From: Gemmatimonadales bacterium | GTDB lineage: Bacteria > Gemmatimonadota > Gemmatimonadetes > Gemmatimonadales > GWC2-71-9 | DNA: 55,609 bases | NCBI GenBank assembly: GCA_031402135.1 | Contig: JANNSC010000095.1 | Span: 1-55,609, forward strand | Direction of reading: 5' to 3' | Shown: piece after piece, positions 25,274 to 43,216 of the stretch | Layout: each line of letters begins with the position of its first letter | How positions within the stretch are numbered: the first letter of the stretch is position 1 | The notes under the pieces: generated by a model | What the model was told of the DNA's origin: nothing | The model's database searches: none | The model's input: only the letters and a program-made list of their open reading frames with translations | Translations under genes and position numbers: made by a program

Positions 25274-25289
25274 CGGAACGCAACCTGAG

Positions 25290-28604: not shown

Positions 28605-29365
28605 CTGGCTCGCGCTTTGGGCTGCTCCCCGGCAAACCAGTGGGCCCGCCCGAGGTCGTAGTAGGCCTCGATCAGATTGGGACCGAGCGCCAGCGCCTTC
28701 CGAAGAAAAGACTCGGCGTCGGCCATCATGCCGCGTTCCAGATACACCAGGCCGAGGTAGTAGTGGGCGTACAGTGTTGCCTTGGGGTCGTTGTCCATCC
28801 GGATGACCCGGGAGAGATGCTCGATCGCTTCGCCGAAAATCATTTTCTTGAGGCAGATGTACCCGACGTTGACCCGGGCGAGAGCGTTGGCCGGTTCGGT
28901 CATCAGGACCCGGGAGAACGTCGCCAGGGCATCATCGAAGGCTTCCATGAGCATCTGGGCCCAGCCCAGCAGGGAGAGGGCCTGGGGGTCTCCGGGGGCA
29001 AGTTCGAGAGCCCGCTGCAGCGCCTGGGTGGCGCCGGCCGGATCGCCCAGCGAGATCAGGCTCCAGCCCTTCTCGATGTAGGTCGAGGCGCCCAGGTGAT
29101 CCCGGTGCAATTGCGGCGTCTCCGGTGCGCGCGCGGCGCCGGCGTCGGCGCTGGCTTCCTTGTAGCGGGTTACCAGTCCCCGGATGTCCTCCTTGAGCTG
29201 GGCAAACTCACCCAGCGCCCCATCCACCCGCTTGAAAAGTCCCACGATTCGCCGCTTGACGTCCTCCCGCTCGGTCCCGGCGGCACCGCCGTCGAGGGCC
29301 GCGCCGATGGCGTGGAATTCCTCCCGGAGGCCTTCCAGCAGCAGAGGAGGACGCGGATCGGTCAC
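28493..29365 (-). CDS. TPR repeat protein (290 aa)
   Basis: TPR units such as AGATQALQRALELAPGDPQALSLLGWAQ, ANALARVNVGYICLKKMIFGEAIEHLSRVIRMD and AHYYLGLVYLERGMMADAESFLRKALALGPN. GTG start in a GTGA overlap with the cheD stop. Confidence 0.8.
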   Translation of the reverse strand: MTDPRPPLLLEGLREEFHAIGAALDGGAAGTEREDVKRRIVGLFKRVDGALGEFAQLKEDIRGLVTRYKEASADAGAARAPETPQLHRDHLGASTYIEKGWSLISLGDPAGATQALQRALELAPGDPQALSLLGWAQMLMEAFDDALATFSRVLMTEPANALARVNVGYICLKKMIFGEAIEHLSRVIRMDNDPKATLYAHYYLGLVYLERGMMADAESFLRKALALGPNLIEAYYDLGRAHWFAGEQPKARASWEQGAAAGKFSPWAQRCQELLERTARGEEVPRTGSG

Positions 29366-29853
29366 AGCTCCACCGAGCCGTGCTGGTAGGAGCTCACCAC
29401 CACTCGGCCGGTTTCCACGTTGAAGTCCACGGAACGGCCATAGTCCCCGCCCACCACCTCGCCAACGGTGCGGATGCCCTGGCGGTGGAGCGCCTCGCGC
29501 ACCGCGTGGACGTTGCGTTCGCCCATCTGGATGGTGCCGGCGGGTTGCAATGCGGAGAACATGCTGGCCCCACCGACCAGACGCGCGGTGAGCCGGGGCT
29601 GCTGCGCCCCCAGCGCGAGCAGCAGTTCGGTCAGCGCGGGGATGGCCGTGGGTGCGTAGCGCCCCGGCGTGTCAGGACGGGCCCGCCCGACGCTCCCTGA
29701 CGGCAGCAGCACATGGGCCAGGCCTCCAACCTTGGCGACCTGGTCGTACAGGATCACCGCGACGCAGCTTCCCAGGGCCAGTGCCGTGAGCGTGGCCGGC
29801 GCACTGGCGACCTCCATTTCGGCGATTCCGATGATTCGGCGCGGGGCGGTCAC
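29362..29853 (-). CDS. cheD: chemoreceptor glutamine deamidase CheD
   Basis: GTG start (29851..29853) in a GTGA overlap with the cheR stop. ALGSCVAVILYD (catalytic Cys), GGLAHVLLP (His), GERNV; 163 aa. The longer track ORF is rejected. Confidence 0.88.
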   Translation of the reverse strand: MTAPRRIIGIAEMEVASAPATLTALALGSCVAVILYDQVAKVGGLAHVLLPSGSVGRARPDTPGRYAPTAIPALTELLLALGAQQPRLTARLVGGASMFSALQPAGTIQMGERNVHAVREALHRQGIRTVGEVVGGDYGRSVDFNVETGRVVVSSYQHGSVEL

Positions 29854-30665
29854 GACGCCCTCCGGTAAATGCGATGAGTGACATCGACCGGGGTCAGCCC
29901 GGCATCGGGAAACGCCAGCAGCGATTCCGTCCGGCCGAGCATCAGGAGCCCGTTTTCCGCCAGCGCACCGCAGGCCGCCTGGAGCACTCGGCGCTGCCCC
30001 TCGGGGCCAAGAAATATGAGCAGGTTGCGACAACAGACCAGATCGCACCGGTCGGGGGACACTGCGCCGGCGGTGAGATCTTCATGGCAAAAAGTGACTC
30101 GCTCGCGGGCGGCGGATCCCACCACGAAGTGTCCATCTTCCACGGTTCCGTAGGGCTCCGACACCACGGCCGTGATTGCGGCCGCCGCGCCCGGCGCATA
30201 GCGACCGGCGATTGCCGCCGTCAACCCCTGGGAGTCCACGTCGGAAGCGAACACCCGGATATTGGCAGCCGGCGGAACTCCCAGCTGTCGGGAAAGGTCG
30301 AGCAGCAGCATGGCCAGGGACCACGCCTCTTCGCCGGTGGCGCAGCCCATGCTCCAGGCGGAGATCTGTCCTGCCTGCCCGCATCGCTGGCGCAGCAGGT
30401 GGGCCTGGAGGCACTGCCAGCTGTCGGGGTTCCGAAAGAACTCGGTGACCCGCACCGAGAGGGTGTGCAGCAGCTGGTCCACTTCGGCCGGGTCATCGGC
30501 AAGCATTCCGGCATAGACGAGGAGAGAGTCGGTTCCCCGGGCCCGCATCCGCACCTCCACCCGGCGCAGGAGGCAATTTTCCTTGTACCACTCGAACCCG
30601 CCGGCGCCGTGCAGCGCCAGCTCCTTGATGACCACCGAGAGCCCATACTCATCTTTCAGGGTCAT
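29850..30665 (-). CDS. cheR: chemotaxis protein methyltransferase CheR
   Basis: Start MTLKDEYGL (ATGA overlap with the upstream stop). VTEFFRNPDSW, AWSMGCATGEEAWSLAMLL (SAM-binding), CRNLLIFL. Confidence 0.88.
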   Translation of the reverse strand: MTLKDEYGLSVVIKELALHGAGGFEWYKENCLLRRVEVRMRARGTDSLLVYAGMLADDPAEVDQLLHTLSVRVTEFFRNPDSWQCLQAHLLRQRCGQAGQISAWSMGCATGEEAWSLAMLLLDLSRQLGVPPAANIRVFASDVDSQGLTAAIAGRYAPGAAAAITAVVSEPYGTVEDGHFVVGSAARERVTFCHEDLTAGAVSPDRCDLVCCRNLLIFLGPEGQRRVLQAACGALAENGLLMLGRTESLLAFPDAGLTPVDVTHRIYRRAS

Positions 30666-32278
30666 GGCGACAACGGCAGAGTGTCGAGGTTGGCCCGGGC
30701 CAGTTGATGCCCCGGATTGAGCGCCAAGGCGCGGTCCCAGCATTCCCGGGCCCGGGCAGTGTCGCGCTGACGAAAGGCAAGATTGCCAAGCTTGAAGAAG
30801 AGATCGTCTCCCAGGCAGGGGTCGAGGGCAGCAGCGCGCTGGTAGAGACTCACCGCCTCGTCATAGCGGCCGGAGCGATAGCAGAGATCGCCAAGGTTCT
30901 TGAACGCCTGGGGAAGCGAGGCGTCGGTGGCCAGAACTTCCCGGAGCAGCACCTCCGCCTCGGCGATGGCCCCGGTGGCCTCGAGCAGCACCGCGTAATT
31001 GTTGCGCAGGACGACGTCGTGGGGATGGTGCTCGCTGCCCTCGCGTCCCAGCGCAAGCGCGCTGTCCAGATCCTCGGTGCCGGCGGCGGCACGCATTGCG
31101 GCCCAGTACCAGAGGGCAGGCGGAGTCTCCCGAATCATTTCCCGGGCCCGCTGCAGGCGCTGCCGGGCCACCACCGGCTCGCCCCGCTTCAAGGCGAGAA
31201 TGCCCCAGCCGAGGTGGATCCGGCCATCATCCGGGGCCCGGCCAGCCGCCTCGGCCAGCGCCGTCTCGGCTTGCTCGAGCCTTCCCTGTTGCTGGAGCGC
31301 AATCCCCAGGTTGTGGAGCAGCGACGGGCGGGGTCCGCTGCGGTCGATAGCCTGGCGCAGCAGGTCGGTCGCCTCGGCCCACTGGCCCCGGCGGGCCGCA
31401 ATGAGACCGAGGTAGAAGGGCGCGGTGCCTTCGGAGGGCCGCAGTTCCGCCACTCGGCGAAACTCCCGCAGCGCCTCGTCGAGCATGTCGGTTCGGTAGA
31501 AAGCAATCCCGAGGTTGCGATGCTCCTCGAGCTGAGCATCGAGCAGGCGGGATGGCGCCGCCATGGCTGAGGTGCCGACCTTGTGGGCGAGTCCCGCGGT
31601 GACCAGGCCGTAGAGCGCCTGCCCGGCGTCGAATTCCACCAGCCCCGACTGGTCGATGACCTGGCGAACGTCACGCTGCCCATCGAGCAAGGGGAGGATG
31701 CGGCGCTGCGATTCGGTGAAATCCGCCTGATGCCCTTCGACCTGTCCGGGCAGCACCGCGAAAATGAGATCGAAACTGGTGATTTTTTTCTCGATCAGGC
31801 TCCACTCGTCAATGCGACGAGCGCCCTCCAGCAAGAGCGATTCCGGGTTGATGCGGTCGAACCGGTCCTCTCCCTCGGGCTGGACGCCGACCTCGAAGCT
31901 GAAGGTGCCGGTTTCCCAGGAGAAGAGCGAGTAGACCGCCTCCTCGATCTGCAGCCGGACCGAGCGGCGGAGTCCTTCGGGGCTGAGCACCCCAAGGGTC
32001 ACCAGCAGTTCTCCGATCCGGCGCCCCGGTGCGGTCTGCTGAAGCACCAGCGCCTGTTCCAGCTGAGGCCGGGTTATGGCACCGCTGGCCAGCAGCATGT
32101 CTCCCAACCGGTCGCGCCGGTTGACGATCGAGGCAGAGATGATCGCGCCTTCCTCAAACCAGATCGATCCGTGGCGCTGCCGGTCGGCGACCGAAAGGCA
32201 TCCGGTTCTTCGCCCCATGAAGAGGAGCTGGATGACGTCGGGGAGGCTGGCCTCGCGGAGACTGCCCTTGATGGCCAT
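30662..32278 (-). CDS. PATAN (DUF4388) domain - TPR repeat protein
   Basis: The N-terminus MAIKGSLREASLPDVIQLLFMGRRTGCLSV...GSIWFEEGAII is the DUF4388/PATAN signature. The C-terminal half has multiple TPR units. It is a paralog of 36416..37564 (shared LLLEGARRIDEWS block). Confidence 0.8.
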   Translation of the reverse strand: MAIKGSLREASLPDVIQLLFMGRRTGCLSVADRQRHGSIWFEEGAIISASIVNRRDRLGDMLLASGAITRPQLEQALVLQQTAPGRRIGELLVTLGVLSPEGLRRSVRLQIEEAVYSLFSWETGTFSFEVGVQPEGEDRFDRINPESLLLEGARRIDEWSLIEKKITSFDLIFAVLPGQVEGHQADFTESQRRILPLLDGQRDVRQVIDQSGLVEFDAGQALYGLVTAGLAHKVGTSAMAAPSRLLDAQLEEHRNLGIAFYRTDMLDEALREFRRVAELRPSEGTAPFYLGLIAARRGQWAEATDLLRQAIDRSGPRPSLLHNLGIALQQQGRLEQAETALAEAAGRAPDDGRIHLGWGILALKRGEPVVARQRLQRAREMIRETPPALWYWAAMRAAAGTEDLDSALALGREGSEHHPHDVVLRNNYAVLLEATGAIAEAEVLLREVLATDASLPQAFKNLGDLCYRSGRYDEAVSLYQRAAALDPCLGDDLFFKLGNLAFRQRDTARARECWDRALALNPGHQLARANLDTLPLSP

Positions 32279-34219
32279 CTACTTGAACTCCGCGATGAGG
32301 CGGTCCCGCATGACCGGCCACTCTTCCACGGTTTTTTCCGAGCTCCGCACCAGCCCCATCCCGGGTGACAAGATGCCGCTGGCTCGGCCGGCGCTGCTCT
32401 TGCGCTGTCCCCGGCCGGGCCCCAGGTCGAGGACCTCGAGGACTTCGCGGGCCAGGGCGGGGCTGGGCGTGACGCCCTGGGCGGCGGCTTCGCCCAGCAC
32501 CCGCTGGACGATGCCCTGGACCGCGCGGATCGAGTCGGCCGGCCGGGCTGCGAGGTAGTCCGCCAAGCCGGCATCGAGCTCGGCCAAGGTGCCGGCGAGG
32601 AGCCGCTTGATGACCGTCAGCCGCACCTCCCGATCGGGTGCGGGGAGTTCGACGACGAGCCCGCTCTCCAGGCGTACCAGGAGCCGAGGATCGATCACTT
32701 CCAGACTCTCCAGGGGGCGCAGGCTGGCGAAGACCATCTGCCGCCCGCCTTCCAGCAGCTCGTCCTGCAGCATCAGCAGTTCCATTTGCGCGTCGGTTTC
32801 GCCGGCCAGCAGGTGGAAATCATCCACCAGCAAGGCCCCCACCCAGCGATACCGGTGGCGCCAGGCGGCGCGCTGCACCGGCTCGGCGTGGGCCCGCACC
32901 TCGGCCGCAAAGGCATGGGCGCCAAGGCACGCGATGGGCGCGACACCTCGGGCGGCGAGGGCGTTGCCGAGCCCGTGGAGGAAGTGGCTCTTGCCCGCCC
33001 CGGCACCGCCGATGATGACCAGCGGGGAGTAGCGCTGACCCGGCTCATTGATGATGTCCCGGGCGGCCATCATGGGCAGCCGTATGCCGGGGCCCTCGGC
33101 GAAATCCTCGAAGCGATAACTGGCCAGCGGCGCAGTGAGTGGTGCCGTGCGGGAGCGGGCCTGCTCGACCAGCGCCCGGGCAGCGGCCACCTGATCGGGA
33201 TCCCGAAAGAGTTCCGCCCCGGCAAGATCAGGGGCGAGTTCCGCGGCCTCCAGGGCGAGGGCGAGGATTTCCCGCGCATCGGCGTCGTAGAGGGCGAGGA
33301 TCGGTTCCGGGTCGACCGGCGCTTCCCGCTGAAGCAGCTCCTCAAGACGCCGAGTTCGCAGCCCTTCCCCGCCCCATTTCAGGACGGCTTCCCCGATCCG
33401 GCGGCGCCAGCGATCGACTTGCTCCGAGAGACTGGCGGTGACCTCGGAGAGAAAGGCGCCAAATTCGTCTCCGGCATCGGCGGGCAAGGCAGGCGGCTGG
33501 AACGGCTCGGGCAACGGTGCCACCGGCGCGCCAATCAGGAGCAGCGCATCGCGAGCGGACAGCGGAACAGCGCTGGCTTCCTGAAACGCGAGGAGCCGCG
33601 CCAAGGCGCCGGTGTAGTCCCGCATGGAGGGAAACTCCGCCTCGGCGATGGCGCGGACCGCTTCGCTGGGCAGTACCGTGGTCGATCCGGTGAGGCGCTG
33701 ACGGAGGATTGCCAACCGAGTGGCCGGTCCCGGGAGCGTCAGCGTGACGGTGGTTCCTTCCGACAGCCGGCGCACCAGCCGGGCATCGAGGCCGGAGAGC
33801 TGGTCGACCGGCACGGTCACGGCGATCACCACTTCCCGGCCGGCACCCCGCCGGGCATCCACCAAATCGGCCACCAGTCCCTGGCAGTCGCGGTGCCGAG
33901 CCAGCGTTTCGAGATCATCCAGCAGCACCAGATCGGCCCCGAACAGCTCACCCCGAAAGCGTTCACCCCGGGCAACCAGGAGCGCGGAGCGATAGCGCTG
34001 GGCCAGCGTGTCAGGGTCGAGCACCTCGAGGGTCGCGCTGGGATGATGGGTCCGGACCCGGGAGGCAATGGCCTGGAGAAGTTCGGTCTTGCCGCTCCCC
34101 GGCGCGCCCACCACCACCAGCGGCGCGTAGGGAACCCCGCTGGCGTCCGCCACCGCCCGGGCCGCCGCGGCGGCGGGGCGGTTGGCCGGGTCGAGAACGA
34201 AGGTCTCGAAGTCGGTCAC
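32279..34219 (-). CDS. tandem DnaA-domain-III-like (Hda-like) AAA+ ATPase, two modules, no DNA-binding domain IV
   Basis: Module 1: FETFVLDPANRPAAAAARAVA...PLVVVGAPGSGKTELLQAI (Walker A), LVLLDDLETL (Walker B), RLVRRLSEG (box VII Arg), SMRDYTGAL (sensor 2). Module 2: FEDFAEGPGIRLPMMAARDII...PLVIIGGAGAGKSHFLHGL, LLVDDFHLL, RLLVRLESG, SIRAVQGIV. Each is colinear with E. coli DnaA TFDNFV...GGTGLGKTHLLHA...LLIDDIQF...RLKSRF...VRELEGAL. GTG start in a GTGA overlap with the mglA stop. Confidence 0.75.
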   Translation of the reverse strand: MTDFETFVLDPANRPAAAAARAVADASGVPYAPLVVVGAPGSGKTELLQAIASRVRTHHPSATLEVLDPDTLAQRYRSALLVARGERFRGELFGADLVLLDDLETLARHRDCQGLVADLVDARRGAGREVVIAVTVPVDQLSGLDARLVRRLSEGTTVTLTLPGPATRLAILRQRLTGSTTVLPSEAVRAIAEAEFPSMRDYTGALARLLAFQEASAVPLSARDALLLIGAPVAPLPEPFQPPALPADAGDEFGAFLSEVTASLSEQVDRWRRRIGEAVLKWGGEGLRTRRLEELLQREAPVDPEPILALYDADAREILALALEAAELAPDLAGAELFRDPDQVAAARALVEQARSRTAPLTAPLASYRFEDFAEGPGIRLPMMAARDIINEPGQRYSPLVIIGGAGAGKSHFLHGLGNALAARGVAPIACLGAHAFAAEVRAHAEPVQRAAWRHRYRWVGALLVDDFHLLAGETDAQMELLMLQDELLEGGRQMVFASLRPLESLEVIDPRLLVRLESGLVVELPAPDREVRLTVIKRLLAGTLAELDAGLADYLAARPADSIRAVQGIVQRVLGEAAAQGVTPSPALAREVLEVLDLGPGRGQRKSSAGRASGILSPGMGLVRSSEKTVEEWPVMRDRLIAEFK

Positions 34220-34818
34220 GGAGCCGGGGGCCGTGCCGCGAGGCGCTGCAGCACCAGGCTGGACAGCGCCTTCAGGGTTTCAAACACGCCACTCCCGTGC
34301 AGCGCGTCGGAGGGAAAACTGGGCACCCCGCGAAAATTAAAGGCGTCATCGAGTTCGCTGGGCGCCAGGATCAGGTCGGTGGGAAGGTCCTGTTTGTTGT
34401 ATTGGAGGACGAGAGGAAGCTGCCGAATGTCCACGCCTTGCTCCAGCAAGTTTTCCTGGAGGTCTCGAAAGCTCTCGAGATTATCGTCGAATCGCCGGGC
34501 CTGACTGTCGGCGACGAAGACGACGCCATCAGCGCCCTGCAGCACCAGTCGGCGGGTGGCATTGTAATAGACTTGTCCCGGCACGGTATAGAGTTGAAAC
34601 CGCGTGGTATAGCCGGAAATGATGCCGAGTTCGAGCGGCAGAAAATCAAAGAACAGGGTTCGGTCCGATTGGGTGGCCAGCGACACCATGTTCCCCCGCC
34701 GATCCTCCGGCACCCGACCATGGATATAGAGCAGATTGGTGGTCTTTCCGCACCGCCCGGGTCCGTAGAAGACCAGTTTGCAGGTGATTTCACGGCTGGT
34801 GAAGTTTACCAGAGGCAT
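34216..34818 (-). CDS. mglA: Ras-like polarity GTPase MglA
   Basis: 200 aa, MPLVNFTSREITCKLVFYGPGRCGKTTNLLYIH...SDRTLFFDFLPLELG...RFQLYTVPGQVYY...VLQYNKQDL. It is near-colinear with Myxococcus MglA ([32 protein letters not shown]...TDRTLFFDFLP...TVPGQV...NKRDL). The track's 312-aa extension is rejected. Confidence 0.92.
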   Translation of the reverse strand: MPLVNFTSREITCKLVFYGPGRCGKTTNLLYIHGRVPEDRRGNMVSLATQSDRTLFFDFLPLELGIISGYTTRFQLYTVPGQVYYNATRRLVLQGADGVVFVADSQARRFDDNLESFRDLQENLLEQGVDIRQLPLVLQYNKQDLPTDLILAPSELDDAFNFRGVPSFPSDALHGSGVFETLKALSSLVLQRLAARPPAP

Positions 34819-34822
34819 CAGG

Positions 34823-35284
34823 TCACCGTCCGAACAGCGCGCGAAGGCTGCTGTTGAGTTCGTCCTCGAAATTTTCCGCCAACACCTGCCGGGCCGGCTC
34901 GGCGGCCGGCGCAGCGCGCTCGAGGTCCTGGGTGAGGCGAGCGAAAAAGAGCTGGACCAGGCCGAGGGAGGTTTCCGCTCCGAAAACGACGAGACCGATC
35001 CAGCGGCCTCTCGGGGTGGAGAACGCGGCGAGGTAGAGGCCCAGCCCGGTTCCCTGATGGACCACCGCATCCAGCGGTCGGCTGCCCATGACGCGGGCCA
35101 ACTCGGCGGTTGCGGCCATGATGCCGGCTCCCAGCGCAGCGGCGGACATGACATCGAGCGAACGAGTGAAGCCGTGCTGCGCCACGACCTGGCCCGACGC
35201 GGTCATCAGCAGCGTGACCCGGGCCGCCGATTCGCCGAGGAACTCGGTCAGCGGCCGCTCCACCCACGGCTCGATGGCGCGCAT
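34823..35284 (-). CDS. mglB: Roadblock/LC7 domain protein, MglB-like GAP
   Basis: 153 aa. VTLLMTASGQVVAQHG...AALGAGIMAATAELARVMG...LVVFGAETSLGLVQLFFARLTQDL parallels MglB VVFLVDKNGQLISSAG...VIFDNRTSLGLVRLRIKKASDEL. It lies immediately upstream of mglA. Confidence 0.85.
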   Translation of the reverse strand: MRAIEPWVERPLTEFLGESAARVTLLMTASGQVVAQHGFTRSLDVMSAAALGAGIMAATAELARVMGSRPLDAVVHQGTGLGLYLAAFSTPRGRWIGLVVFGAETSLGLVQLFFARLTQDLERAAPAAEPARQVLAENFEDELNSSLRALFGR

Positions 35285-35628
35285 CAGGCGGATTGCTCCG
35301 CAGCCGCGAGCAGGCCGAGTCGGAGCTCACCGGCGTTGACGTCCGCCGCCGCGATGGCCACGACCAGCAAACCGCCCGGGGCGGGCGCCACCAGGAGTGC
35401 CCCCTCACTGCCGGTGAGCTGGACCAGCACCCCCTCCGGGTGACCCAGTGCCGCCGTCATGCCGCCGATTCGTTGGGTGAGGCTGGCGGCGAGCGCGGCC
35501 ACCGCTGCTCCATCCAGACTGTCCATGAGCGCCTCGGCCACCACCAGTCCGTCCTCGCGGGAAACCAGCAGGGCGCCACGGACGCCGGCAATGCGGGTCA
35601 GGGTGTCGAGCGTATCGGTCAGGCTCAC
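35284..35628 (-). CDS. Roadblock/LC7 domain protein (second paralog, MglC-like position)
   Basis: 114 aa. LTRIAGVRGALLVSREDGLVVAEAL...AAVAALAASLTQRIGGM...LLVAPAPGGLLVVAIAAADVNAGELRLGL shows a typical Roadblock fold pattern. GTG start in a GTGA overlap. Confidence 0.75.
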   Translation of the reverse strand: MSLTDTLDTLTRIAGVRGALLVSREDGLVVAEALMDSLDGAAVAALAASLTQRIGGMTAALGHPEGVLVQLTGSEGALLVAPAPGGLLVVAIAAADVNAGELRLGLLAAAEQSA

Positions 35629-36419
35629 CGGAGTTCCTCCAGCCAGCGCCGCGCGGTGGCGGTCGCGCGGTCGGCCAGGAGGGCCAGCCGTCCGGCGGGC
35701 ACCTCAGAGGGGCGGGTTATGAGCAACACCGCGTCCACCGTGGGGAGACGAATCTCGAAATGGGCCGGGCCACCCTCCAGGGCAATCCGCCGCCAGGCGC
35801 CCAGCCCGAGGAGCCGGGCCACGCGGTCGGCCTCCCGGGTGATGCCCCCGAGGGCTGCCGCCACTGCCTCAGCGGCGTCCCGGCCATCGGCGGCCCGAAC
35901 GCCGCCTGCCAGTATCCGTCCCTGCCGGTCCACCAGCACCGCCCGCCCGGCCTCCGGGTCGAGGACGGCGAGGGGATCGGGCGCGGGCTCAGCATAACCC
36001 GGTATCGGCCGTGCCCCGGCCCGCTCCCGGGCCCGGGCGAGCGCCGCCGCGAGTGGGGCGTCCTCCGGCGACAGTTCCGCGGCCCTCTGCATGTAACGCA
36101 GACTGCGGGCGTGGTCGCCGGCCCGGTAGGAGAGGAACGCCAGCCCCTTGTGGGCGCCAACGTGCTCCGGCGCCAGCCGGAGGACGGTGGTCCAGGCATC
36201 GAAGGCGAGGTCTCCCTCCCCTCGATCGCTCTGGATCCGGGCGACCAAATCCCAGGCGCCGGCCATTTCCGGATAGCGGCCCGCCCCCTGCGCAGCCACG
36301 GTGAGCGCTGACTCGAATTGGCCCCGCCGGCGCAGCAACTCGGCCAGCGGGAGGAAGACCAGGCTCGAGGGGTCGCGGGCGAGCTGCGCGGTCAGGGCCG
36401 GGATGTCGTCGCTGGTCAC
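35625..36419 (-). CDS. TPR - Roadblock/LC7-like fusion protein
   Basis: GTG start (36417..36419) in a GTGA overlap with the upstream stop. The N-half is TPR-like (AGAWDLVARIQSDRGEGDLAFDAWTTVLRLAPEHVGAHKGLAFLSYRAGDHARSLRYMQRAAELSPED). The C-half (GRAVLVDRQGRILAGG...EAVAAALGGITREADRVARLLGLG...VLLITRPSEVPAGRLAL) follows the Roadblock pattern. Confidence 0.65.
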   Translation of the reverse strand: MTSDDIPALTAQLARDPSSLVFLPLAELLRRRGQFESALTVAAQGAGRYPEMAGAWDLVARIQSDRGEGDLAFDAWTTVLRLAPEHVGAHKGLAFLSYRAGDHARSLRYMQRAAELSPEDAPLAAALARARERAGARPIPGYAEPAPDPLAVLDPEAGRAVLVDRQGRILAGGVRAADGRDAAEAVAAALGGITREADRVARLLGLGAWRRIALEGGPAHFEIRLPTVDAVLLITRPSEVPAGRLALLADRATATARRWLEELR

Positions 36420-37564
36420 GACACCTTCCGAAGTTGCTCGACCAGGTGCCGCGCGGCGGGCACCACGCCCGACACCTCCCGAAGATGCGCTGCTTCCTCG
36501 GGATTCTTGTCGGGAAGAGCCAGCCACGCCTCGAAGCCATGCACCGCTTCTTCGAGTCGCCCGGCCCCGAGAAGCGCCCACGCCAGGAGCCGCCGGGGAC
36601 GGCAGCCACCCGGATCCAGCCGCACCGCTTCTCGAAGCGCACTTTGGGCCTCAGCGTAACGGCGCTCGATCAGCAGGATCGAACCGATCAGCAGATGGGT
36701 CCGCGAGTCGCCGGGAAAGGCATCGAGCGCCGCCTGCGCGGCGGCCCGCGCCGCATCGGCGTTCCCGGCGCGAAGCTGGTCTTCGCCCTGACGGAGCAAG
36801 GCCTCGGCATCCCGGCGAGGCGCGGCGTGGGCCGATTCGAGCGCCGGATCCCGGAGGACCACCACACCGGCAGTGGTCAGCCCGAAGAGAGCGCGGGCCA
36901 CATCGAACTCGGGTTCTCCCAGCGAAACTGCCATGGTATGCAGGTCGCGATCGCCGTCAGCTGCAGCGAGCACCCGCCACTCGAAGGGGGTCAGGGTGAG
37001 TGAACCGGAGTCGGTGGTGACCGGCGGCGCCAACCGGGGAACCACGCCGGTATGGGCTACCCGGCTCTGGATCCGGGACCACTCATCGATGCGACGGGCT
37101 CCCTCGAGCAGGAGGTGTTCCACCGAAATCCGGAGATCGGTCTCCTGGGGGATTTCCTCGACTGGACACTCCTCGAATACAAAATACCCCTCGGACCATC
37201 CTAGCATGGTGAAAACGACGTCCTCGATGTGGGCGCGCACCTGAATCTTGAGCTCCCGCTCGCTAAGGGCTCCGGTCGCCACCAGAATTTCCCCGATCCG
37301 TCGAGCGTCCCCGTGTTCCTGCAGGGCCCGGGCCTGGGCCAGGTCTTCCTCGCGAATCTTTCCGGCCCGCAGCAGCGCGGTTCCCAGCGGATGCGGATTC
37401 GAATGAATCGAGGCCGCCACCACTGCGGCCGCGTCGAACCAGATGGTGCCTTCATTCTGGCGAAGGGCTGAGGAAATGTTGAGCGCCCCGGTCTTGCGGC
37501 CCAGGTCGAGCAGCTGAAAGACGTCGTGGATGCCGAGCTCGCGGAGAGGCCCCTGGATGGCCAT
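36416..37564 (-). CDS. PATAN (DUF4388) domain protein with C-terminal TPR-like region
   Basis: MAIQGPLRELGIHDVFQLLDLGRKTGALNI...GTIWFDAAAVV is the DUF4388 signature. It shares the LLLEGARRIDEWS block with 30662..32278. Confidence 0.8.
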   Translation of the reverse strand: MAIQGPLRELGIHDVFQLLDLGRKTGALNISSALRQNEGTIWFDAAAVVAASIHSNPHPLGTALLRAGKIREEDLAQARALQEHGDARRIGEILVATGALSERELKIQVRAHIEDVVFTMLGWSEGYFVFEECPVEEIPQETDLRISVEHLLLEGARRIDEWSRIQSRVAHTGVVPRLAPPVTTDSGSLTLTPFEWRVLAAADGDRDLHTMAVSLGEPEFDVARALFGLTTAGVVVLRDPALESAHAAPRRDAEALLRQGEDQLRAGNADAARAAAQAALDAFPGDSRTHLLIGSILLIERRYAEAQSALREAVRLDPGGCRPRRLLAWALLGAGRLEEAVHGFEAWLALPDKNPEEAAHLREVSGVVPAARHLVEQLRKVS

Positions 37565-37565
37565 T

Positions 37566-40232
37566 TCAGGCCGGGCTCGATTGGAGGATATGAGCCAGTT
37601 CGCGCGCCGAGCGGGCCTGGGCCCGGGCCGGCTCCGCGAACGGGCCGGTGGGGTCGAGCGCCGTCACCCGTTCCCAGTCAACCACCGCGGCGCGGTAGCG
37701 ACGCAGCCTCGCTTCGGCGAGGCCGCGGTGATAGAGCGCCAGCACATGGTCGGGGTGGAACCGAACCACCCGGTCGAACGCGGCGATTGCCTCTTCGGTG
37801 CGCCCATCGTCGGCGAGGCTGCGGCCAAGCAGCACCAGGGCCTCCAAGGCGTAGGGCTGGGCAAGCAGCAGATCCACCATGAGCCGGATGGCTTCCCCGG
37901 TGAGCCCGCTTCGCCGCAGCAGGTCGCCGAGGGCGAGCCCGGCATCGAGAAAGGTCGGGAGCAGTTCGAGGGCCCGCTGGTACGCAATGCGAGCGGCGCC
38001 GCTGCGCTGCAGTTCCTCCTCCACGACACCGCGTTCGTACCACGCCTGCACCAGGGTGCCGTCGAGCTCCAGGGCGCCGGTGAGGGCGTCGAGCGCGCCG
38101 AGGCCGTCACCCTGCTTCCGGAGAATGCTGCCGCGGAGCAGCAGCAGATCGGCGCGCCCGGGCGCCTGCGTAGCTGCGGCGGTGACGTCGAGGGCGGCCC
38201 CTTCGAGATCACCGATGAGCTGGCGAGCGTGGGCGCGAACCAGCAACACCTCGGGTCGATCGGGCCCCTGCCCCACCAGCTGGTCGGCCACTGCAATGGC
38301 CTCCGCACCGCGACCCAATGCCACCAGGGACTGAGCTTCCCCGAGCAGAATGTCGGAATCGTTGGGTGCCAGAGCTCGCGCCTCCCTGAAGCGCTCCAGC
38401 GCCTCCCCGAAAAGGCCCCGGCGGGCAAAGACCTCACCGAGGAGGGCGGCTCCGGTGGCCCGGGGCGCGCCGCGACGAATTGCCCGGTGGACTTCGGCCG
38501 CCGCGGTATCGAGCAAGCCCTTGCCGAGCAGATCCCGGACCAGCGCGTAGAGGTCGTCCTCCGGATCCGGAGCCGGCGCGGTTTCCCGGGGAGCAAGCTG
38601 CCCGAAGAGCTGGTCGAGCACTCCGGGGTCAAAGTCGAAGCCCTCATCGGTCGGGAAGGTTCCGGAGGCAGCCCAGACTGCGGGAGGCATCGGGAGCAGA
38701 GATTCCTCGAACTGCAGTTGGACCGCAAGCGCATAGCTCTGCGGCACGTAGAAGGGATCCAACTCGAGGGCCCGCCGGGTTTCCCGCAGGGCATCGTCGA
38801 AGGCGCCCAGCTGGCTCAGCGCGAATCCGAGGTTGTATCGGGCTGGAGCAAAATTGGGGTCATTCTCGACCGAGCGGGCAAATGCGTTGCGGGCATCCTG
38901 GTGCCGGCGCAGTTCCATCAGGACCAGACCGACTCCATTCCAGGCCACCGGCTCTCCGGGCCGGTCCGCCAAGGCGGCGCGGTACGCTTCGAGGGCGTGT
39001 TGGAGGTCGTGGCGCTGGAGGAAGAGATGTCCGAGGTTGAGGCGGGCGCCGGCAAAATCCGGTCGGGCCCGGAGCGCCACCTGGAACGCTTCGACCGCGG
39101 GCCCGGTGTCGGAGTCGCTAGTACCGGCCACGCCGAGATTATTCCAGGCGTGGGCCGAGGAGGGATCGGCGTCCACCGCCCGTCGATAGGAGCCCCGGGC
39201 TTCCTCCCGGCGGCCCGCTTGATGGAGGCAGACGCCTCGCTCGTTCCAGAGTTCGGCATTGCCCGGCTGGCGCTCGAGTAAGCGATCGTAAAGCTCGATG
39301 GCCGCGCCGAAATCTTTCCGGAGCAGGTGGGTTTCGGCCATCGCTTCGAGCGCAGTGGCCTCGTCCTCACCGGATTCGAGCGCGAGGCGGCACTCCCGCA
39401 GCGCTTCGGTGAGGTAGCCGCGCTTTCGAAATGCGACGGACAGACTGAGATGCGGCTGCAACACTCCGCCATCGCTTCCACCGGTGGGGCGGCGGGGCGC
39501 CTTGCCGCGCTTGCCACCGATGAGCAGGTTGGGCTGGGCGGTGGCCAGCGCCGGGTTCAACGCGATGGCCCGGCGGGTCGAGGCGCGGGCTGCCTCGTGG
39601 TAGCCAAGATCTCCGTAGAGGAATCCCAGGAGGTAGTGCACCTCGGCGTGATCGGGATTGAGCGCCGTGGCCTCGGTGAGAATGGTCAGTGCCTTGTCGT
39701 TGAGGCCCCGGTTGTACAGCGCTCGCCCAAGGTAGAGCCGGGCCACCGAGCTTTTCGGGTCGGCGTCGCAGGCGCGCTGGTACCACTCGGTGGCGCGCTC
39801 CGGGCGGCCCCGGGCCTGCTCGACCAGCCCGAGTTGCACCAAGGCGGTTGGATCGACCGGATTGATCCGGAGCAATTCCTCGTGCTGTTGAATGGCCTGA
39901 TCGTGCTGGCCCAAGGCGAGATAGGCGCGGGCGAGTTCGAGTCGGGCGTTTCGGGCACCGGGATCCCGGGTAAGACGCTCGCGCAGGTCCCCGATCAGGG
40001 TGTCGAAATAGCCCGACTCCCGCTGCACAGTTTCCAGATTGTCCTGAGCGACCCGCATGTCAGGGTCGAGCTCGAGCGCGTAGCCCAAGGCGGCAATCGC
40101 CTCGGGGATCAGCCCGCGTTCGTAGTAAAAAACACCGAGGTTGTTCTGGGCACCCGGGTCCGAGGGGTCAATCCGCCGGGCGAGCGACCGGAGAGCGTCG
40201 GCGTCCCGGCCGGACGGAGCGGCCGCCGGCAT
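37566..40232 (-). CDS. large TPR repeat protein (888 aa)
   Basis: About 20 recognisable 34-residue TPR units run through the whole length, e.g. AQNNLGVFYYERGLIPEAIAALGYALELDPD and AEVHYLLGFLYGDLGYHEAARASTRRAIALNP. Confidence 0.85.
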   Translation of the reverse strand: MPAAAPSGRDADALRSLARRIDPSDPGAQNNLGVFYYERGLIPEAIAALGYALELDPDMRVAQDNLETVQRESGYFDTLIGDLRERLTRDPGARNARLELARAYLALGQHDQAIQQHEELLRINPVDPTALVQLGLVEQARGRPERATEWYQRACDADPKSSVARLYLGRALYNRGLNDKALTILTEATALNPDHAEVHYLLGFLYGDLGYHEAARASTRRAIALNPALATAQPNLLIGGKRGKAPRRPTGGSDGGVLQPHLSLSVAFRKRGYLTEALRECRLALESGEDEATALEAMAETHLLRKDFGAAIELYDRLLERQPGNAELWNERGVCLHQAGRREEARGSYRRAVDADPSSAHAWNNLGVAGTSDSDTGPAVEAFQVALRARPDFAGARLNLGHLFLQRHDLQHALEAYRAALADRPGEPVAWNGVGLVLMELRRHQDARNAFARSVENDPNFAPARYNLGFALSQLGAFDDALRETRRALELDPFYVPQSYALAVQLQFEESLLPMPPAVWAASGTFPTDEGFDFDPGVLDQLFGQLAPRETAPAPDPEDDLYALVRDLLGKGLLDTAAAEVHRAIRRGAPRATGAALLGEVFARRGLFGEALERFREARALAPNDSDILLGEAQSLVALGRGAEAIAVADQLVGQGPDRPEVLLVRAHARQLIGDLEGAALDVTAAATQAPGRADLLLLRGSILRKQGDGLGALDALTGALELDGTLVQAWYERGVVEEELQRSGAARIAYQRALELLPTFLDAGLALGDLLRRSGLTGEAIRLMVDLLLAQPYALEALVLLGRSLADDGRTEEAIAAFDRVVRFHPDHVLALYHRGLAEARLRRYRAAVVDWERVTALDPTGPFAEPARAQARSARELAHILQSSPA

Positions 40233-40236
40233 CGTG

Positions 40237-40872
40237 TCAGTTGGCGACCCGGATCGCGTCGAAAATGGCTTGCAGCGAGGGAGGGTCCGGCATCAGCAGG
40301 AACTGCCCGGTAAGGGCCTGGTCGGATCCTTCGATCCGGAAAGTCGTTTCGACGCAGAACAGGGCGTCGCGATCGTGGCCGAAGTTGAGGTAGGCGGTGG
40401 TGAGGACGGCGCCGGCCAAGTCGACGACCAGCGCGGGCACCGAGGGGACCAGCATCATCCCCAGAAAATCGGAGAGCGCCGTCATGTAGGCGGAGCAGAG
40501 AATATTCGCGGTTTCCTTGATGGTGGACTGCTGCATGGCATCGAACGTGGTGCCGGGACCATTGGGGCGCCGGAGCAGAAGCTCACACAGCGCAAACGCG
40601 GAATCCTGGCCCAGGACAACCAACGTCCGCCCGGTCAGATCTCCCATAACGTGCATGAGTACACCGGCAATCACCGTATCCGGTGGCCCGACCAACAGCG
40701 CGACCTCCTCGAGGCGGCGAATGCTGACTTCGGGGACACTGATCATGATCTTGCGGCTGGTCATTTGGGAGAGCGCGGTGGCTGCGTGGCCGGCCCCGAT
40801 GTTGGCCACCTCGCGCAGCGCATCCCGCTCCAGGTCGGTCAAGGATCTCAGGTCAGCCATCACATCCTCCAC
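40237..40872 (-). CDS. cheC: CheY-P phosphatase CheC
   Basis: Two CheC active-site repeats: LREVANIGAGHAATALS and IKETANILCSAYMTALS (E-x2-N). About 210 aa. An alternative start is 12 nt downstream. Confidence 0.85.
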   Translation of the reverse strand: MEDVMADLRSLTDLERDALREVANIGAGHAATALSQMTSRKIMISVPEVSIRRLEEVALLVGPPDTVIAGVLMHVMGDLTGRTLVVLGQDSAFALCELLLRRPNGPGTTFDAMQQSTIKETANILCSAYMTALSDFLGMMLVPSVPALVVDLAGAVLTTAYLNFGHDRDALFCVETTFRIEGSDQALTGQFLLMPDPPSLQAIFDAIRVAN

Positions 40873-42450
40873 CTAGAAGAGAGCGGCCGGGTCGATGATC
40901 AGCGCCGGCGCGCCGTCGGGCAGAATCGTGGCTCCGCTCACCCAGGTGGGGAGTCCCGCCGGCGCCATGAACCGCCGAACCACTACGTCCTGCTGCCCCA
41001 GCAGCACATCCACCACGAGGGCGGCGCGGCGCCCCCCGATATCCACCACCACGACTGGCCGCCGGGAAGCATTGGCCTCGGCCAGGCCAAGGATCTTCCG
41101 GAGATCGGCGGTGGGCAACGATTCCTCCCGTAAAATAACCTCGCCGTCGCCTGCTTTATGCACCGCAGCCTCGGCCAGAAGCCCGAAGGGGAGCGCGTAG
41201 CGTTCTCCGCCCACCCCGACCAGCAGTGCCCGGAGGATCGCTCGGGTCACCGGAAGGTGCATCAGGAAGGTGGTGCCCCTCCCCGGAACGGTTTTGAGCT
41301 CCATCCGGCCGCCGAGGGAGCGCACCCGCGCCAACACCGCATCGATGCCAACCCCGCGTCCCGAGACCGCAGTGACTTCACGCTTGGTGGTCAGGCCGGG
41401 GTGCGCCAGCAGCCGGAGCAGCCCGGTGGCATCGGGCATCCCTGCCTCGGGGTCAAGAAGACCGCGCTCCACGGCGCGGAGTCGCACCGCCGCACGATCG
41501 ATCCCGCGGCCGTCGTCGGCAACCGTGACGGTCACCTCATCGCGGACTCGCTCGGCCCGAAGCCGGAGGGTGCCGTGGCGGGGCTTCCCGACCGCGATCC
41601 GCTCCGACGGCGATTCCATCCCGTGGTCGGCGGCGTTTCGAAGCAGGTGGGTGAGTGGCTCGGTGAGTGCATCGAGCACCGAGCGATCGAGTTCGATATC
41701 GATGCCCTGCAACTCGAGCTCCAGCTCCTTGCCGAGCTCCCGGCCGAGGTCGCGCACCATGCGAGGAAATCGGTCAAAGACCTCGTCCACCGGCGCCATG
41801 CGGGCCCGGAGCACCCCGCTCTGGAGGCCGGAGACCAGCGCCGAAATCCTGCCACTGACCTGCTCCAGGTCAGATCCGATTTCCCGATCGGCAATCCCGG
41901 AGAGCCGGTTGCGCGACACCACCAGCTCACTCACTGCGGTGACCAGCGCATCGAGCCGCTCGAGGTCGACCCGGACCTGCCGGGCGGGGAGCTTGGTCAT
42001 GACCGGCTGGGCGCCGGTGAGCCGCGGCTGAATCCGACGCTCCACCACCGGCATTTCCCCAGTGCGGGAATCGACCACCGGGACCAAACCGTAGAGCGCG
42101 TCGATCAGGAGGGGATCGACCTCGGGTGGTTCGCCCCGACCGACTGCCTCGACCGCCTCGGCAAGGCCATCTACCGCGTGGAAAAGGGCCTCGAGCGCAT
42201 CGCGGGAGACGGCCAGGGTCCCCTGACGCACCGCCGCAAGCACCTGTTCGGCGGCGTGGGAAAGGTCCGACAGCGGCTCGAGAGAGAGCGCTGCCGAAGA
42301 ACCCTTGATGGAGTGGAAGGCACGAAAAAGCTCGGCCACCGGAGTGGACGAGCTCGGATCACGCTCCCAGGCGAGGAGCAGCTCGTTGCAGCGCTGAAGG
42401 TGGTCGCGGCTGTCGGAGAGAAAGAGGGCGGTATATCGGGCCAGATCCAC
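40873..42450 (-). CDS. cheA: chemotaxis histidine kinase CheA (P1-P3-P4-P5, no obvious P2)
   Basis: Hpt FHSIKGSSAAL, dimerisation VRVDLERLDALV, N-box LTHLLRNAADHG, G1 DDGRGID, G2 GRGVGID, and a C-terminal CheW-like domain. Confidence 0.92.
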   Translation of the reverse strand: MDLARYTALFLSDSRDHLQRCNELLLAWERDPSSSTPVAELFRAFHSIKGSSAALSLEPLSDLSHAAEQVLAAVRQGTLAVSRDALEALFHAVDGLAEAVEAVGRGEPPEVDPLLIDALYGLVPVVDSRTGEMPVVERRIQPRLTGAQPVMTKLPARQVRVDLERLDALVTAVSELVVSRNRLSGIADREIGSDLEQVSGRISALVSGLQSGVLRARMAPVDEVFDRFPRMVRDLGRELGKELELELQGIDIELDRSVLDALTEPLTHLLRNAADHGMESPSERIAVGKPRHGTLRLRAERVRDEVTVTVADDGRGIDRAAVRLRAVERGLLDPEAGMPDATGLLRLLAHPGLTTKREVTAVSGRGVGIDAVLARVRSLGGRMELKTVPGRGTTFLMHLPVTRAILRALLVGVGGERYALPFGLLAEAAVHKAGDGEVILREESLPTADLRKILGLAEANASRRPVVVVDIGGRRAALVVDVLLGQQDVVVRRFMAPAGLPTWVSGATILPDGAPALIIDPAALF

Positions 42451-42456
42451 CGGGGC

Positions 42457-42819
42457 TCACCCGAGCAGCCGTTGCACCGCTTCGAGCACGCGGGAGGGCT
42501 GAAACGGCTTGACCACGAAGTCCTTGGCACCGGCTTGAATTGCTTCCACCACCAGGGCCTGCTGCCCCATGGCGCTGCACATCAAGATCTTGGCCTGGGG
42601 GTTGTCCTTGCAGATTTCGCGTACCGCCTCGATGCCGCCCATCTCAGGCATGACGATGTCCATGGTGACCAGATCGGGCTTGAGCTGGCGATATTTTTCC
42701 ACCGCCTGGGCGCCGGATTCAGCTTCACCGACGACTTCGTACCCGGCTTGGGTGAGAATATCGGTGATCATGGTTCGCATGAAGATCGCGTCGTCGCAGA
42801 CGAGCACCGTATGAGCCAC
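42457..42819 (-). CDS. cheY: response regulator CheY (single receiver domain)
   Basis: 120 aa. VLVCDDAIFMR, phospho-acceptor LVTMDIVMPEMGG, KDFVVKPF. Confidence 0.92.
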   Translation of the reverse strand: MAHTVLVCDDAIFMRTMITDILTQAGYEVVGEAESGAQAVEKYRQLKPDLVTMDIVMPEMGGIEAVREICKDNPQAKILMCSAMGQQALVVEAIQAGAKDFVVKPFQPSRVLEAVQRLLG

Positions 42820-42834
42820 GGGGTCCTCCCTCGG

Positions 42835-43212
42835 TTACAGCTTGGTGACTTCGGGCCGGAGCAGCGGGCGAACCAACGCTTCAACGTCAAGGGTTGGCAG
42901 CCGGCCTGCTGTGCCCACGGCGTGCACATCCTCCACCTCATCCACTTCCAGACCGACCGTTCCGTCACACATTGAGAGCACCAGGAGCCAGTCGGTGGAC
43001 CCGGCATTGCGAATTCCGAAGAGCGCCGGTCCACTCACTACAGTGACCAAGGTCCCCCGCACATTGGCAATACCCCGGACCGCCTCGGGGGCGCCCGGCA
43101 ACCGGGCCAGCGCCGGGGTGGCGACCACTTCCCGGATGGCAGCAATTGGTAGCGCAAATCGTTCGCCAGCCACCCGGCAAACCACAACGCGGGTGGTGCC
43201 CGGGCCCGTCAC
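42835..43212 (-). CDS. cheW: chemotaxis coupling protein CheW
   Basis: GTG start (43210..43212), 4 nt after the rluD stop. RVVVCRVAGERFALPIAAIREVV...VRGIANVRGTLVTVV is the CheW-like domain. The longer track ORF overlaps rluD and is rejected. Confidence 0.85.
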   Translation of the reverse strand: MTGPGTTRVVVCRVAGERFALPIAAIREVVATPALARLPGAPEAVRGIANVRGTLVTVVSGPALFGIRNAGSTDWLLVLSMCDGTVGLEVDEVEDVHAVGTAGRLPTLDVEALVRPLLRPEVTKL

Positions 43213-43216
43213 TTGG

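Follow-up and report, generated by a model that had tools for sequence, protein, structure and literature searches.

Our analysis concerns a chemosensory–polarity gene cassette in the window, by which we mean the whole 55,609-nucleotide stretch that was analysed (contig JANNSC010000095.1 of assembly GCA_031402135.1, from a Gemmatimonadales bacterium). A preliminary description of this DNA, made from the letters, had listed fourteen consecutive minus-strand genes that join a chemosensory (Che) pathway to an MglA/MglB polarity-GTPase module. The Pfam, NCBIfam and PDB matches of the encoded proteins bear the list out: domain searches of the translated open reading frames (ORFs) confirm all 14 genes, every one on the minus strand, between positions 29362 and 43212. 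In the direction of reading they are:

42835..43212, minus: cheW, 125 aa, GTG start (PF01584, E = 4e-20)
42457..42819, minus: cheY, single-domain receiver of 120 aa (PF00072, E = 2e-32)
40873..42450, minus: cheA, 525 aa, with Hpt, H-kinase_dim, HATPase_c and CheW domains (P1, P3, P4, P5)
40237..40872, minus: cheC, phosphatase of phosphorylated CheY (CheY-P) (PF04509, E = 5e-24)
37566..40232, minus: all-TPR protein of 888 aa (TPR_2, E = 2e-73; many TPR families)
36416..37564, minus: PATAN1, PATAN (DUF4388) domain and C-terminal TPRs (PF14332, E = 2.8e-27)
35625..36419, minus: TPR–Roadblock fusion, 264 aa, GTG start at 36419 (TPR_2, E = 9e-7)
35284..35628, minus: stand-alone Roadblock/LC7 protein, 114 aa (PF03259, 31.6 bits against a cut-off of 23)
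34823..35284, minus: mglB, 153 aa (M. xanthus MglB in the PDB, E = 1.4e-10)
34216..34818, minus: mglA, 200 aa, Group 1 type (M. xanthus MglA in the PDB, E = 6e-70)
32279..34219, minus: AAA2, tandem DnaA-like ATPase, 646 aa (PF00308, E = 1.5e-51, in two stretches)
30662..32278, minus: PATAN2, PATAN domain and TPRs, 538 aa (PF14332, E = 2.7e-36)
29850..30665, minus: cheR, receptor methyltransferase (PF01739, E = 2.7e-36)
29362..29853, minus: cheD, receptor deamidase and CheC partner (PF03975, E = 8e-28)

This arrangement is not peculiar to one genome; the locus is phylum-wide and vertically conserved. A scan with MglA, taking one genome per species, returned at least 587 relatives, of which the best 80 were kept for locus comparison, with 18 window proteins mapped onto the related loci. 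Nearly all of these 80 are labelled Gemmatimonadota, including Gemmatimonadaceae and one Longimicrobiales metagenome-assembled genome (MAG; L081). The proximity of mglA to cheA, which the preliminary description had proposed to look for in other genomes, proves to be the rule: the gene order is the same in 80/80 of these best-matching species-level genomes as far as the contigs reach, all 40 loci whose upstream flank is long enough contain cheA, and 49 of the 50 whose downstream flank is long enough contain cheD. Since the order recurs in 80 of 80 genomes, the arrangement lies far beyond chance. Annotated relatives at 43-50% AAA2 identity keep both the order and overlaps of 1-8 nt, and the order persists down to 66-68% MglA identity, across orders of the phylum; close AAA2 homologues carry Gemmatimonadales labels. 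Median identity to the window is 86% for CheY, the most conserved product of the cassette, 77% for MglA, 63% for CheC, 55% for PATAN2, 54% for MglB, 48% for CheA and 38% for the AAA+ protein. Moreover, the mgl block is enclosed by che genes, cheWYAC lying upstream of it and cheRD(B,W,W) downstream, and the preservation of this interleaved order makes a chance juxtaposition of two operons unlikely.

By its best model matches the Che core is of the Thermotoga/Bacillus (CheC/CheD) type. CheC scores 173 bits against NF041093 (CheC_Thtogales), under the equivalog cut-off of 250, and CheD scores 142 bits against NF041119 (CheD_Thtga); for both proteins the best-matching models are of the Thermotoga/Halobacterium type. 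These matches and the presence of CheC and CheD are indirect signs that the pathway may belong to evolutionary class F1. CheA matches CheA in the PDB at E = 1.5e-76 and retains the H-box 'HSIKGSS'. The domain search gave no P2 match in the CheA of the window or of L001, and P2 is present in L003 and L085 (four gene calls compared in all). Nor does CheA have a Response_reg match, and the sole receiver domain of the cassette is the 120-aa CheY, in which the acid pocket, the phospho-acceptor Asp, the Ser/Thr and the Lys are present, as judged by eye. A domain scan found no cheB in the 55.6-kb window. CheB is present in L003 and in two fuller Gemmatimonadota versions of the cassette (L090 and L091). 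In 40 of 43 related genomes, cheD and the TPR gene that follows it are separated by an insert of over 800 nt. This insert consists of cheB and two cheW genes in L003 (14831-16808), and of cheB, a small AAA_22 NTPase gene and two cheW genes in L091 (6004-9381). The cheB-cheW-cheW block is absent from the window and from its nearest relatives (L001, L005, L006, L008, L009), and this distribution identifies the window's cassette as a reduced version, from a clade that has lost the block. Where CheB is absent, CheD may supply demethylation or deamidation. As a side observation, L091 and L085 also hold an AAA_22/nSTAND-like NTPase of about 270 aa with a CheW-domain protein of about 344 aa.

The Pfam signal of MglA is weak, and the identity of the protein is settled by comparison with solved structures, which it matches over its full length: E = 6.4e-70 to M. 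xanthus 6hjh over residues 1-193, and E = 1e-63 to T. thermophilus 3t12. Group 1 MglA proteins are defined by an intrinsic arginine finger beside the G2 threonine and by a TVPGQ G3 motif (PMC4316618). The motifs seen in our alignment, GPGRCGKT (P-loop), DRT (in 'SDRTLFFDF'), TVPGQ (in 'YTVPGQV') and NKQD, are kept across 84 sequences and place the cassette MglA in Group 1. The cognate mglB adjoins it, ending 4 nt before the mglA start. Besides its match to the M. xanthus protein, MglB matches T. thermophilus MglB at E = 1.8e-7, and it falls under the curated cut-offs of Robl_LC7 (20.3 bits vs 23) and NF052242 (41.7 bits vs 200); its sequence reads as that of a divergent family member, the NF052242 equivalog model being Thermus-centred. 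In the TPR–Roadblock fusion, which is kept in 68 relatives, the Robl_LC7 signal is weak (21.7 bits vs a cut-off of 23). The stand-alone Roadblock protein matches the Robl_LC7 structure 7f8m at E = 2.5e-4, and its gene occupies an MglC-like position. A tblastn search had suggested that this gene is missing in 12 relatives; we reject that suggestion, since each of them retains a space of about 360 nt at this position, and the apparent absence is a sensitivity artefact.

Both PATAN proteins score above the PF14332 cut-off of 25 bits. Profile searches, together with the comparison with solved structures for MglA and MglB, support the MglA, Roadblock and PATAN assignments that had been made from the letters, MglB and the TPR–Roadblock protein falling just under the Robl_LC7 cut-off. 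For the gene after the 888-aa TPR gene, which had been listed simply as PATAN, the domain stands, and the C-terminal TPRs had been overlooked. In all, four scaffold-type proteins of the cassette contain TPRs, and two of these four also have a PATAN domain; the 888-aa protein is a candidate scaffold or effector. Neither PATAN1 nor PATAN2 has a Response_reg match in the domain search, and TPRs follow the PATAN domain instead. PATAN2 scores 48.8 bits against NF053729, a curated c-di-GMP-binding motif with a cut-off of 38, and its residues ~54-112 match the c-di-GMP-bound N-domain of MshE (5htl, E = 1.6e-6) and Thermus PilF (6f8l, E = 8.8e-7). The RLG core of this motif is kept in 63 orthologues. 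PATAN2 hence carries an intact predicted MshEN-type c-di-GMP site, through which a second-messenger input may enter the system. PATAN1 scores 30.9 bits against the same model, under the cut-off, and its MshEN-like motif is degenerate, the first arginine being lost.

The gene next to mglA encodes AAA2. An AlphaFold model built on an alignment of 27 sequences (mean predicted local distance difference test score, pLDDT, 84; predicted template-modelling score 0.49) shows two α/β AAA+ modules with lids, at residues ~1-230 and 360-598, with a long helical linker (252-355) between them and a disordered tail after the second. The best Foldseek matches are domain III of DnaA from B. subtilis and T. maritima, with template-modelling (TM) scores of 0.85-0.86 normalised to the target and a root-mean-square deviation (rmsd) of 2.2-2.7 Å, and sequence matches are to DnaA only. 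Fold matches to p97/Cdc48 were rejected as an artefact of comparing chains with two AAA domains (rmsd ~28 Å, TM <0.3). No match was found in AAA2 to Bac_DnaA_C (PF08299; domain IV, DNA binding) or to DnaA_N (PF11638; domain I), and the protein scores under the curated equivalog cut-offs for DnaA (TIGR00362, 272.1 vs 343.9 bits) and Hda (TIGR03420, 102 vs 194.8 bits). Among 192 family members, each of the catalytic residues of the two modules (Walker A Lys, Walker B DD, box VII Arg, sensor II Arg) is conserved in 80-95%, the Walker A Lys in 181 for the first module and 179 for the second; both sites appear able to bind and hydrolyse ATP. The C-terminal ~45 residues (~600-646; 32279-32420) are predicted to be disordered (pLDDT <50), and within them the motif E628-K629-x4-W634-P635 is near-invariant, W634 being found in 185/192 members. 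This EK…WP tail looks like a short docking peptide, for which TPR domains would be the obvious candidate receivers.

An exhaustive, profile-free search with AAA2 returned 160 representative clusters at E <1e-30, many of them full-length at ~600-720 aa; membership of this family of about 160 clusters was checked just where genomic context or motifs were read. A search started from a distant member returns, beyond some 30 tandem relatives, ordinary DnaA carrying domains I and IV. The JGI labels for the homologues (P0003-P0120) read 'chromosomal replication initiator protein DnaA', and some NCBI labels read 'DnaA/Hda family protein'. Since these homologues are without DnaA domains I and IV and fall below the DnaA and Hda cut-offs, such names are misleading. 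The tandem DnaA-like ATPase family appears to be undescribed in function.

Natural variants of the locus show which of its genes travel together. L085 reads cheW-cheY-cheA-(small NTPase)-cheW-cheC-TPR-PATAN-AAA+ and has no mglA, mglB or Roadblock gene; its CheY and CheC cluster at 90% identity with proteins from a MAG that bears the label 'Candidatus Cloacimonetes bacterium 4572_55' (label unconfirmed). L087 and L089 read yggS-divIVA-pnp-ileS-rluD-AAA+-PATAN-TPR-peptidase, with no che genes and no mglA, and an mglB-like gene lies between rluD and the AAA+ gene in L089 only, not in L087. In L088, a MAG labelled 'Gemmatimonadetes bacterium' (3765-4667), a gene like that of the 888-aa TPR protein precedes the AAA+ gene, two bactofilin genes lie a few genes further upstream, and no che, mgl or PATAN genes are near the pair; such a TPR gene adjoins the AAA+ gene in L085 as well. 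The invariant association is that of the AAA+ protein with PATAN and/or a large TPR protein. Because the AAA+ gene stays beside PATAN/TPR genes where mglA and mglB are missing (L085) and where che and mglA are missing (L087, L089), we regard it as the core and most persistent member of the cassette, and not as the unexpected addition that it had been taken for. The Che block and the MglA/MglB/Roadblock block, for their part, behave as modules.

How far does the unit extend? The junctions among the 14 genes measure −4 (five times), −1, 0, 0, 1, 4, 4, 6 and 15 nt for the gene starts chosen in each ORF, on which these lengths depend. The claim that all junctions are overlaps or gaps of at most 15 nt is therefore correct, the measured range being −4 to +15 nt; the start of AAA2, for example, overlaps the mglA stop by 4 nt. 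The corollary that there is no room for an internal promoter holds for the tight spacing itself, and promoters inside coding sequence remain possible. The borders at 29362 and 43212, on the other hand, must be moved, as the tight run continues in both directions to the following features:

43217..44149, minus: rluD-like pseudouridine synthase (PF00849, E = 7e-30, plus an S4 domain)
28493..29365, minus: TPR protein of 290 aa, the 15th gene (TPR_1, E = 1e-21)
27624..28463, minus: Peptidase_MA_2 protein, which closes the tight run (PF13485, E = 3e-10)
27256..27330, minus: tRNA-Val(TAC), downstream border of the cassette (Rfam 73.8 bits, and ARAGORN)

The rluD gene ends 4 nt before cheW, with which it probably shares a transcript, and this adjacency is also found in L001, L003 and 40 related genomes. 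At the other end, the 290-aa TPR gene shares the 4 nt at its start with the end of cheD, and this gene is kept after the che block in 46 relatives. The Peptidase_MA_2 gene follows 29 nt further on, and directly after the PATAN-TPR gene in L087 and L089; its product ends in a hydrophobic helix followed by basic residues (…GLAGGFWLAAGSVVIWAAWAKRRR…), which suggests a membrane anchor. Beyond these genes the spacing opens up, with a gap of 65 nt upstream of rluD and one of 436 nt after the Peptidase_MA_2 gene, the latter containing the tRNA-Val gene. The likely unit is thus 27624-44149, from rluD through the Peptidase_MA_2 gene, with 17 genes, and the cassette is probably one co-transcribed and translationally coupled unit.

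The surroundings of this unit are also conserved. Upstream, on the same strand, lies the group yggS-divIVA-ileS-dksA-lspA-rluD (45112-49429 for the group). Downstream, again on the same strand, come a secreted-looking TPR protein, tRNA-Asp and then the dcw cluster (12404-25184), with rsmH, ftsL, ftsI, murE, murF, mraY, murD, ftsW, murG, murC and ftsQ. The placement between the divIVA group and dcw recurs in relatives, and L087 and L089, which keep just AAA2–PATAN-TPR–peptidase, occupy the same rluD/divIVA site. G+C content is 62-70% across the window, with no compositional break at the cassette. We considered and rejected a genomic island or horizontal transfer, since G+C is even across the region (0.66-0.70) and the flanking synteny, with rluD on one side and tRNA and dcw on the other, is kept in relatives. 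Two details of the downstream flank may be recorded here. The genes for tRNA-Asp(GTC) (25289-25364) and tRNA-Val(TAC) bracket a minus-strand 595-aa TPR gene between the cassette and the dcw cluster; the long ORF at 25400-27394 overlaps tRNA-Val, so that the true start must lie later (ATG 27187). And murD (16716-18135, minus) appears to be split by a frameshift near 17280-17330: the ORF at 17080-18135 holds the N-terminal and middle Mur-ligase part and then runs into Pro/Arg/Gly-rich nonsense, and the C-terminal domain continues in another frame at 16716-17279. An assembly indel in an essential gene is the likely cause, and the window may hold other single-base errors.

How could a Che pathway act on MglA polarity in such a cassette? 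We propose a chemosensory-controlled polarity system of the Gemmatimonadota in which the Che pathway, through CheY-P, acts on a hub of PATAN, TPR, Roadblock and AAA+ proteins and thereby on MglA polarity, and we give this general model a probability of roughly 0.55; the specific contacts are less certain. Chemoreceptors encoded elsewhere would drive CheA, which would phosphorylate CheY, and CheC and CheR/CheD (with CheB in relatives) would shape the CheY-P level and adaptation. CheY-P may then dock on the PATAN–TPR proteins, on the Roadblock/MglB proteins, or on both, shifting the balance of MglA-GTP versus MglB and so changing where MglA-GTP persists. Such a shift would set or switch the pole that bears the active machine, most likely type IV pili. 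The docking step is proposed on the strength of precedents: in cyanobacterial PatA-type regulators PATAN is fused to a receiver (REC) domain, in Myxococcus FrzX-P acts on MglB, with FrzX and RomR acting on MglB and MglA, and the TPR proteins SgmX and Bd2492 are MglA partners. By analogy with the latter two, MglA-GTP may recruit a TPR effector. In Synechocystis, a preprint reports, the type IV pilus motor is a binding target of PATAN response regulators (bioRxiv 10.1101/2021.06.11.447907), and genes for type IV pili as well as flagella occur in Gemmatimonas genomes (PMC7844134). Within this model c-di-GMP would modulate PATAN2, and AAA2 could serve as an ATP-driven assembly, remodelling or reset factor of the PATAN/TPR hub, probably docking through its C-terminal EK…WP peptide on a TPR domain. 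The TPR, PATAN and AAA+ trio would be the older core, with the MglA/MglB/Roadblock and Che blocks as optional additions.

Several observations weigh against this model. CheY is very close to T. maritima CheY (1tmy, E = 1.4e-51). A CheY/CheC/CheD core of the Thermotoga/Bacillus type usually signals to the flagellar switch, and this is our main reason for caution about the output. No MCPsignal match was found among the 37 window proteins scanned or in the annotated related loci read, so that the receptor must be encoded elsewhere; with no methyl-accepting chemotaxis protein and no cheB in the window, and with the cheB/cheW/cheW block of 40/43 relatives lost, the cassette is not 'self-contained', as had been claimed. 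The domain search also found in the cassette no RomR/RomX-like protein, and none that combines a receiver with an extra output region. Each link from CheY-P through the PATAN/TPR/Roadblock proteins and AAA2 to MglA is drawn from gene order and domain precedents, and we know of no precedent among DnaA-clade ATPases for the role proposed for AAA2. As to the transcript, a scan for promoters and terminators gave counts equal to the shuffled expectation and hence no information on its borders, and since the window reads almost wholly on the minus strand, tight spacing alone may overstate functional unity. Of the earlier suggestion of 'chemosensory control of cell polarity', then, the che and mgl gene content is firm, and the polarity output stays conditional, given the usual target of this type of Che system.

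The che genes might, for instance, constitute a flagellar chemotaxis pathway, with CheY-P acting on FliM/FliY as in Thermotoga and Bacillus; the Mgl, PATAN, TPR and AAA+ genes would merely share a motility superoperon with them, co-expressed for example to place a polar flagellum or pili, and would receive no CheY-P signal. The match of CheY to its T. maritima counterpart, the Thermotogales models that CheC and CheD match best, the high conservation of CheY, as expected of a motor-binding protein, and the flagellar genes carried by Gemmatimonas genomes (PMC7844134) all fit such a pathway. Against it, the che genes lie in two separate groups with the mgl/PATAN/AAA+ genes between them, an arrangement kept across the phylum, and TPR–PATAN–AAA2 directly follow cheC in the distant L085, where there are no mgl genes. 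Neither the window nor any of the related 20-kb loci with annotations that we read contains a flagellar gene, and the cassette is present in the Longimicrobiales MAG, the cultured member of the Longimicrobiales being described as non-motile. We consider the flagellar account unlikely, if still a serious contender. Alternatively, the cassette could control growth or division polarity (budding, pole identity, cell-cycle coupling), the DnaA-like ATPase linking replication or cell-cycle state to a polar hub. Gemmatimonas species bud as well as dividing by binary fission (PMC7844134), the AAA+ modules are of DnaA descent, and the cassette is wedged between the divIVA group and the dcw cluster on one strand, in a conserved placement that L087 and L089 retain for AAA2–PATAN-TPR–peptidase after the loss of che and mglA; in L088, AAA2 lies a few genes downstream of two bactofilin genes. 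Yet synteny with housekeeping clusters may be historical only, AAA2 is without DnaA domains I and IV, and no N-terminal clamp-binding motif was seen in it by eye, no formal search having been made. Group 1 MglA, PATAN and MshEN-type domains have so far been tied to pili and gliding (PMC4316618), and rapid behavioural signalling is a better fit than cell-cycle control for a complete set of Che adaptation proteins (CheR, CheD, CheB, CheC). Control of growth or division is, in our estimate, quite improbable.

Lastly, the adjacency could be devoid of functional meaning, a frozen order in a lineage of low rearrangement with the tight spacing typical of a compact one-strand region. Unrelated neighbours in the window do overlap by 4 nt as well (ftsH/folP, yggS/divIVA, divIVA/ileS), and rluD is joined to cheW as tightly as the cassette genes are to one another. 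We nevertheless disfavour a frozen order strongly and hold it to be very improbable, because the order is kept across orders of the phylum at 43-50% AAA2 and 66-68% MglA identity, because a separate lineage (L085) again combines TPR–PATAN–AAA2 with che genes, in another genomic setting, because modules are lost as blocks (L087, L089), and because domain fusions link the families, PATAN–REC elsewhere and TPR–Roadblock within the cassette itself.

Returning to the proposed chemosensory-controlled polarity system, we add a bolder suggestion, which we regard as tentative and rather doubtful: the tandem DnaA-derived ATPase together with PATAN/TPR proteins may form an unrecognised ATP-driven output or organiser module for chemosensory pathways, older than MglA and separable from it. 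If this were true, the Gemmatimonadota would possess an organiser that unites chemosensing, c-di-GMP and MglA polarity in one machine, possibly along with the cell cycle or the division site, and the replication-initiator fold would have a new job.

It remains to set the cassette beside known systems. In the published literature, of which few subscription papers were covered, we found no che–mgl operon and, on MglA of the Gemmatimonadota, only the table of Wuichet and Søgaard-Andersen (2014), which lists MglA–MglB–PATAN neighbourhoods in Aquificae, Chlorobi, Chloroflexi and Gemmatimonas aurantiaca (PMC4316618). That the cassette was called uncharacterised is supported in so far as none of the papers covered describes it; MglA–PATAN neighbourhoods as such had already been tabulated. 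G. aurantiaca GAU_1409 appears there as 'PATAN>MglA>-PATAN>' (PMC4316618): as in our window, mglA stands beside PATAN genes, and the one unnamed gene between mglA and the downstream PATAN gene has the position of the AAA+ gene here and may be that gene. The survey differs in recording only MglA, MglB and PATAN, with no che genes, TPR or AAA+ protein (PMC4316618).

Each half of AAA2 resembles DnaA and Hda in its domain-III fold, with Walker A and B motifs, box VII arginines and sensor II arginine. Unlike them, AAA2 has two domain-III modules in one chain, no domain I or IV and a conserved EK…WP tail, falls below their cut-offs, and is encoded in a signalling operon and not at an origin. The cyanobacterial Tax/Pix systems, with their PatA-type PATAN–REC proteins, likewise couple a Che-like pathway to PATAN proteins with a type IV pilus as the likely target, and the insertion within PATAN has relatives in pilus ATPases, namely their MshEN/GSPII-type domain. 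There, however, PATAN is fused to the receiver, whereas in the cassette it is fused to TPRs and CheY is separate, and the cyanobacterial operons are without MglA/MglB and the AAA+ gene. Bdellovibrio bacteriovorus, compared by its published description, also has a Group 1 MglA, which acts with a TPR partner, Bd2492, and RomR at the piliated pole; in contrast to the cassette, it is described without mglB, linked che genes, PATAN or an AAA+ protein (PMC3983030).

The Frz system of Myxococcus xanthus with MglA/MglB/MglC/RomR-RomX (and SgmX) shares most with the cassette: a Che-type kinase pathway and a Group 1 MglA with arginine finger and TVPGQ motif, a cognate mglB just upstream of mglA, at least one extra Roadblock protein (compare MglC), large TPR proteins and, in concept, phosphorylated receivers that reset a GTPase/GAP polarity axis. 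The differences are equally clear. As the preliminary description had stated for Myxococcus, the loci are separate there, and they form one tight run here; mglA is not encoded beside its signalling partners in Myxococcus or in Bdellovibrio (PMC4316618). FrzE has a fused receiver and the cassette CheA has none; the cassette contains no FrzCD-like receptor and no RomR/RomX-like protein; and its Che core is of the CheC/CheD type, while Frz belongs to the ACF class. Judged by the CheA–REC fusion, by an FrzCD receptor and FrzZ in the cluster and by RomR/RomX, the cassette fails to qualify as a Frz system, and its two PATAN–TPR proteins, its TPR–Roadblock fusion and its tandem DnaA-like ATPase are without a Frz/Mgl counterpart.

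To our knowledge, the connection between chemosensory pathways and MglA is understood in Myxococcus alone, whose components are dispersed and whose linking factors (FrzX, FrzZ, RomR) emerged only after years of genetic work. With the cassette, nature provides a second case, outside Myxococcus, in which the possible wiring from sensing to polarity can be studied, in a phylum that is abundant in soil and whose behaviour is little known. Here the candidate partners are encoded side by side, and variants lack the MglA block or the Che block; where the Myxococcus parts are scattered, this adjacency and these variants together yield a short testable list of the proteins that possibly bridge CheY-P and MglA/MglB.

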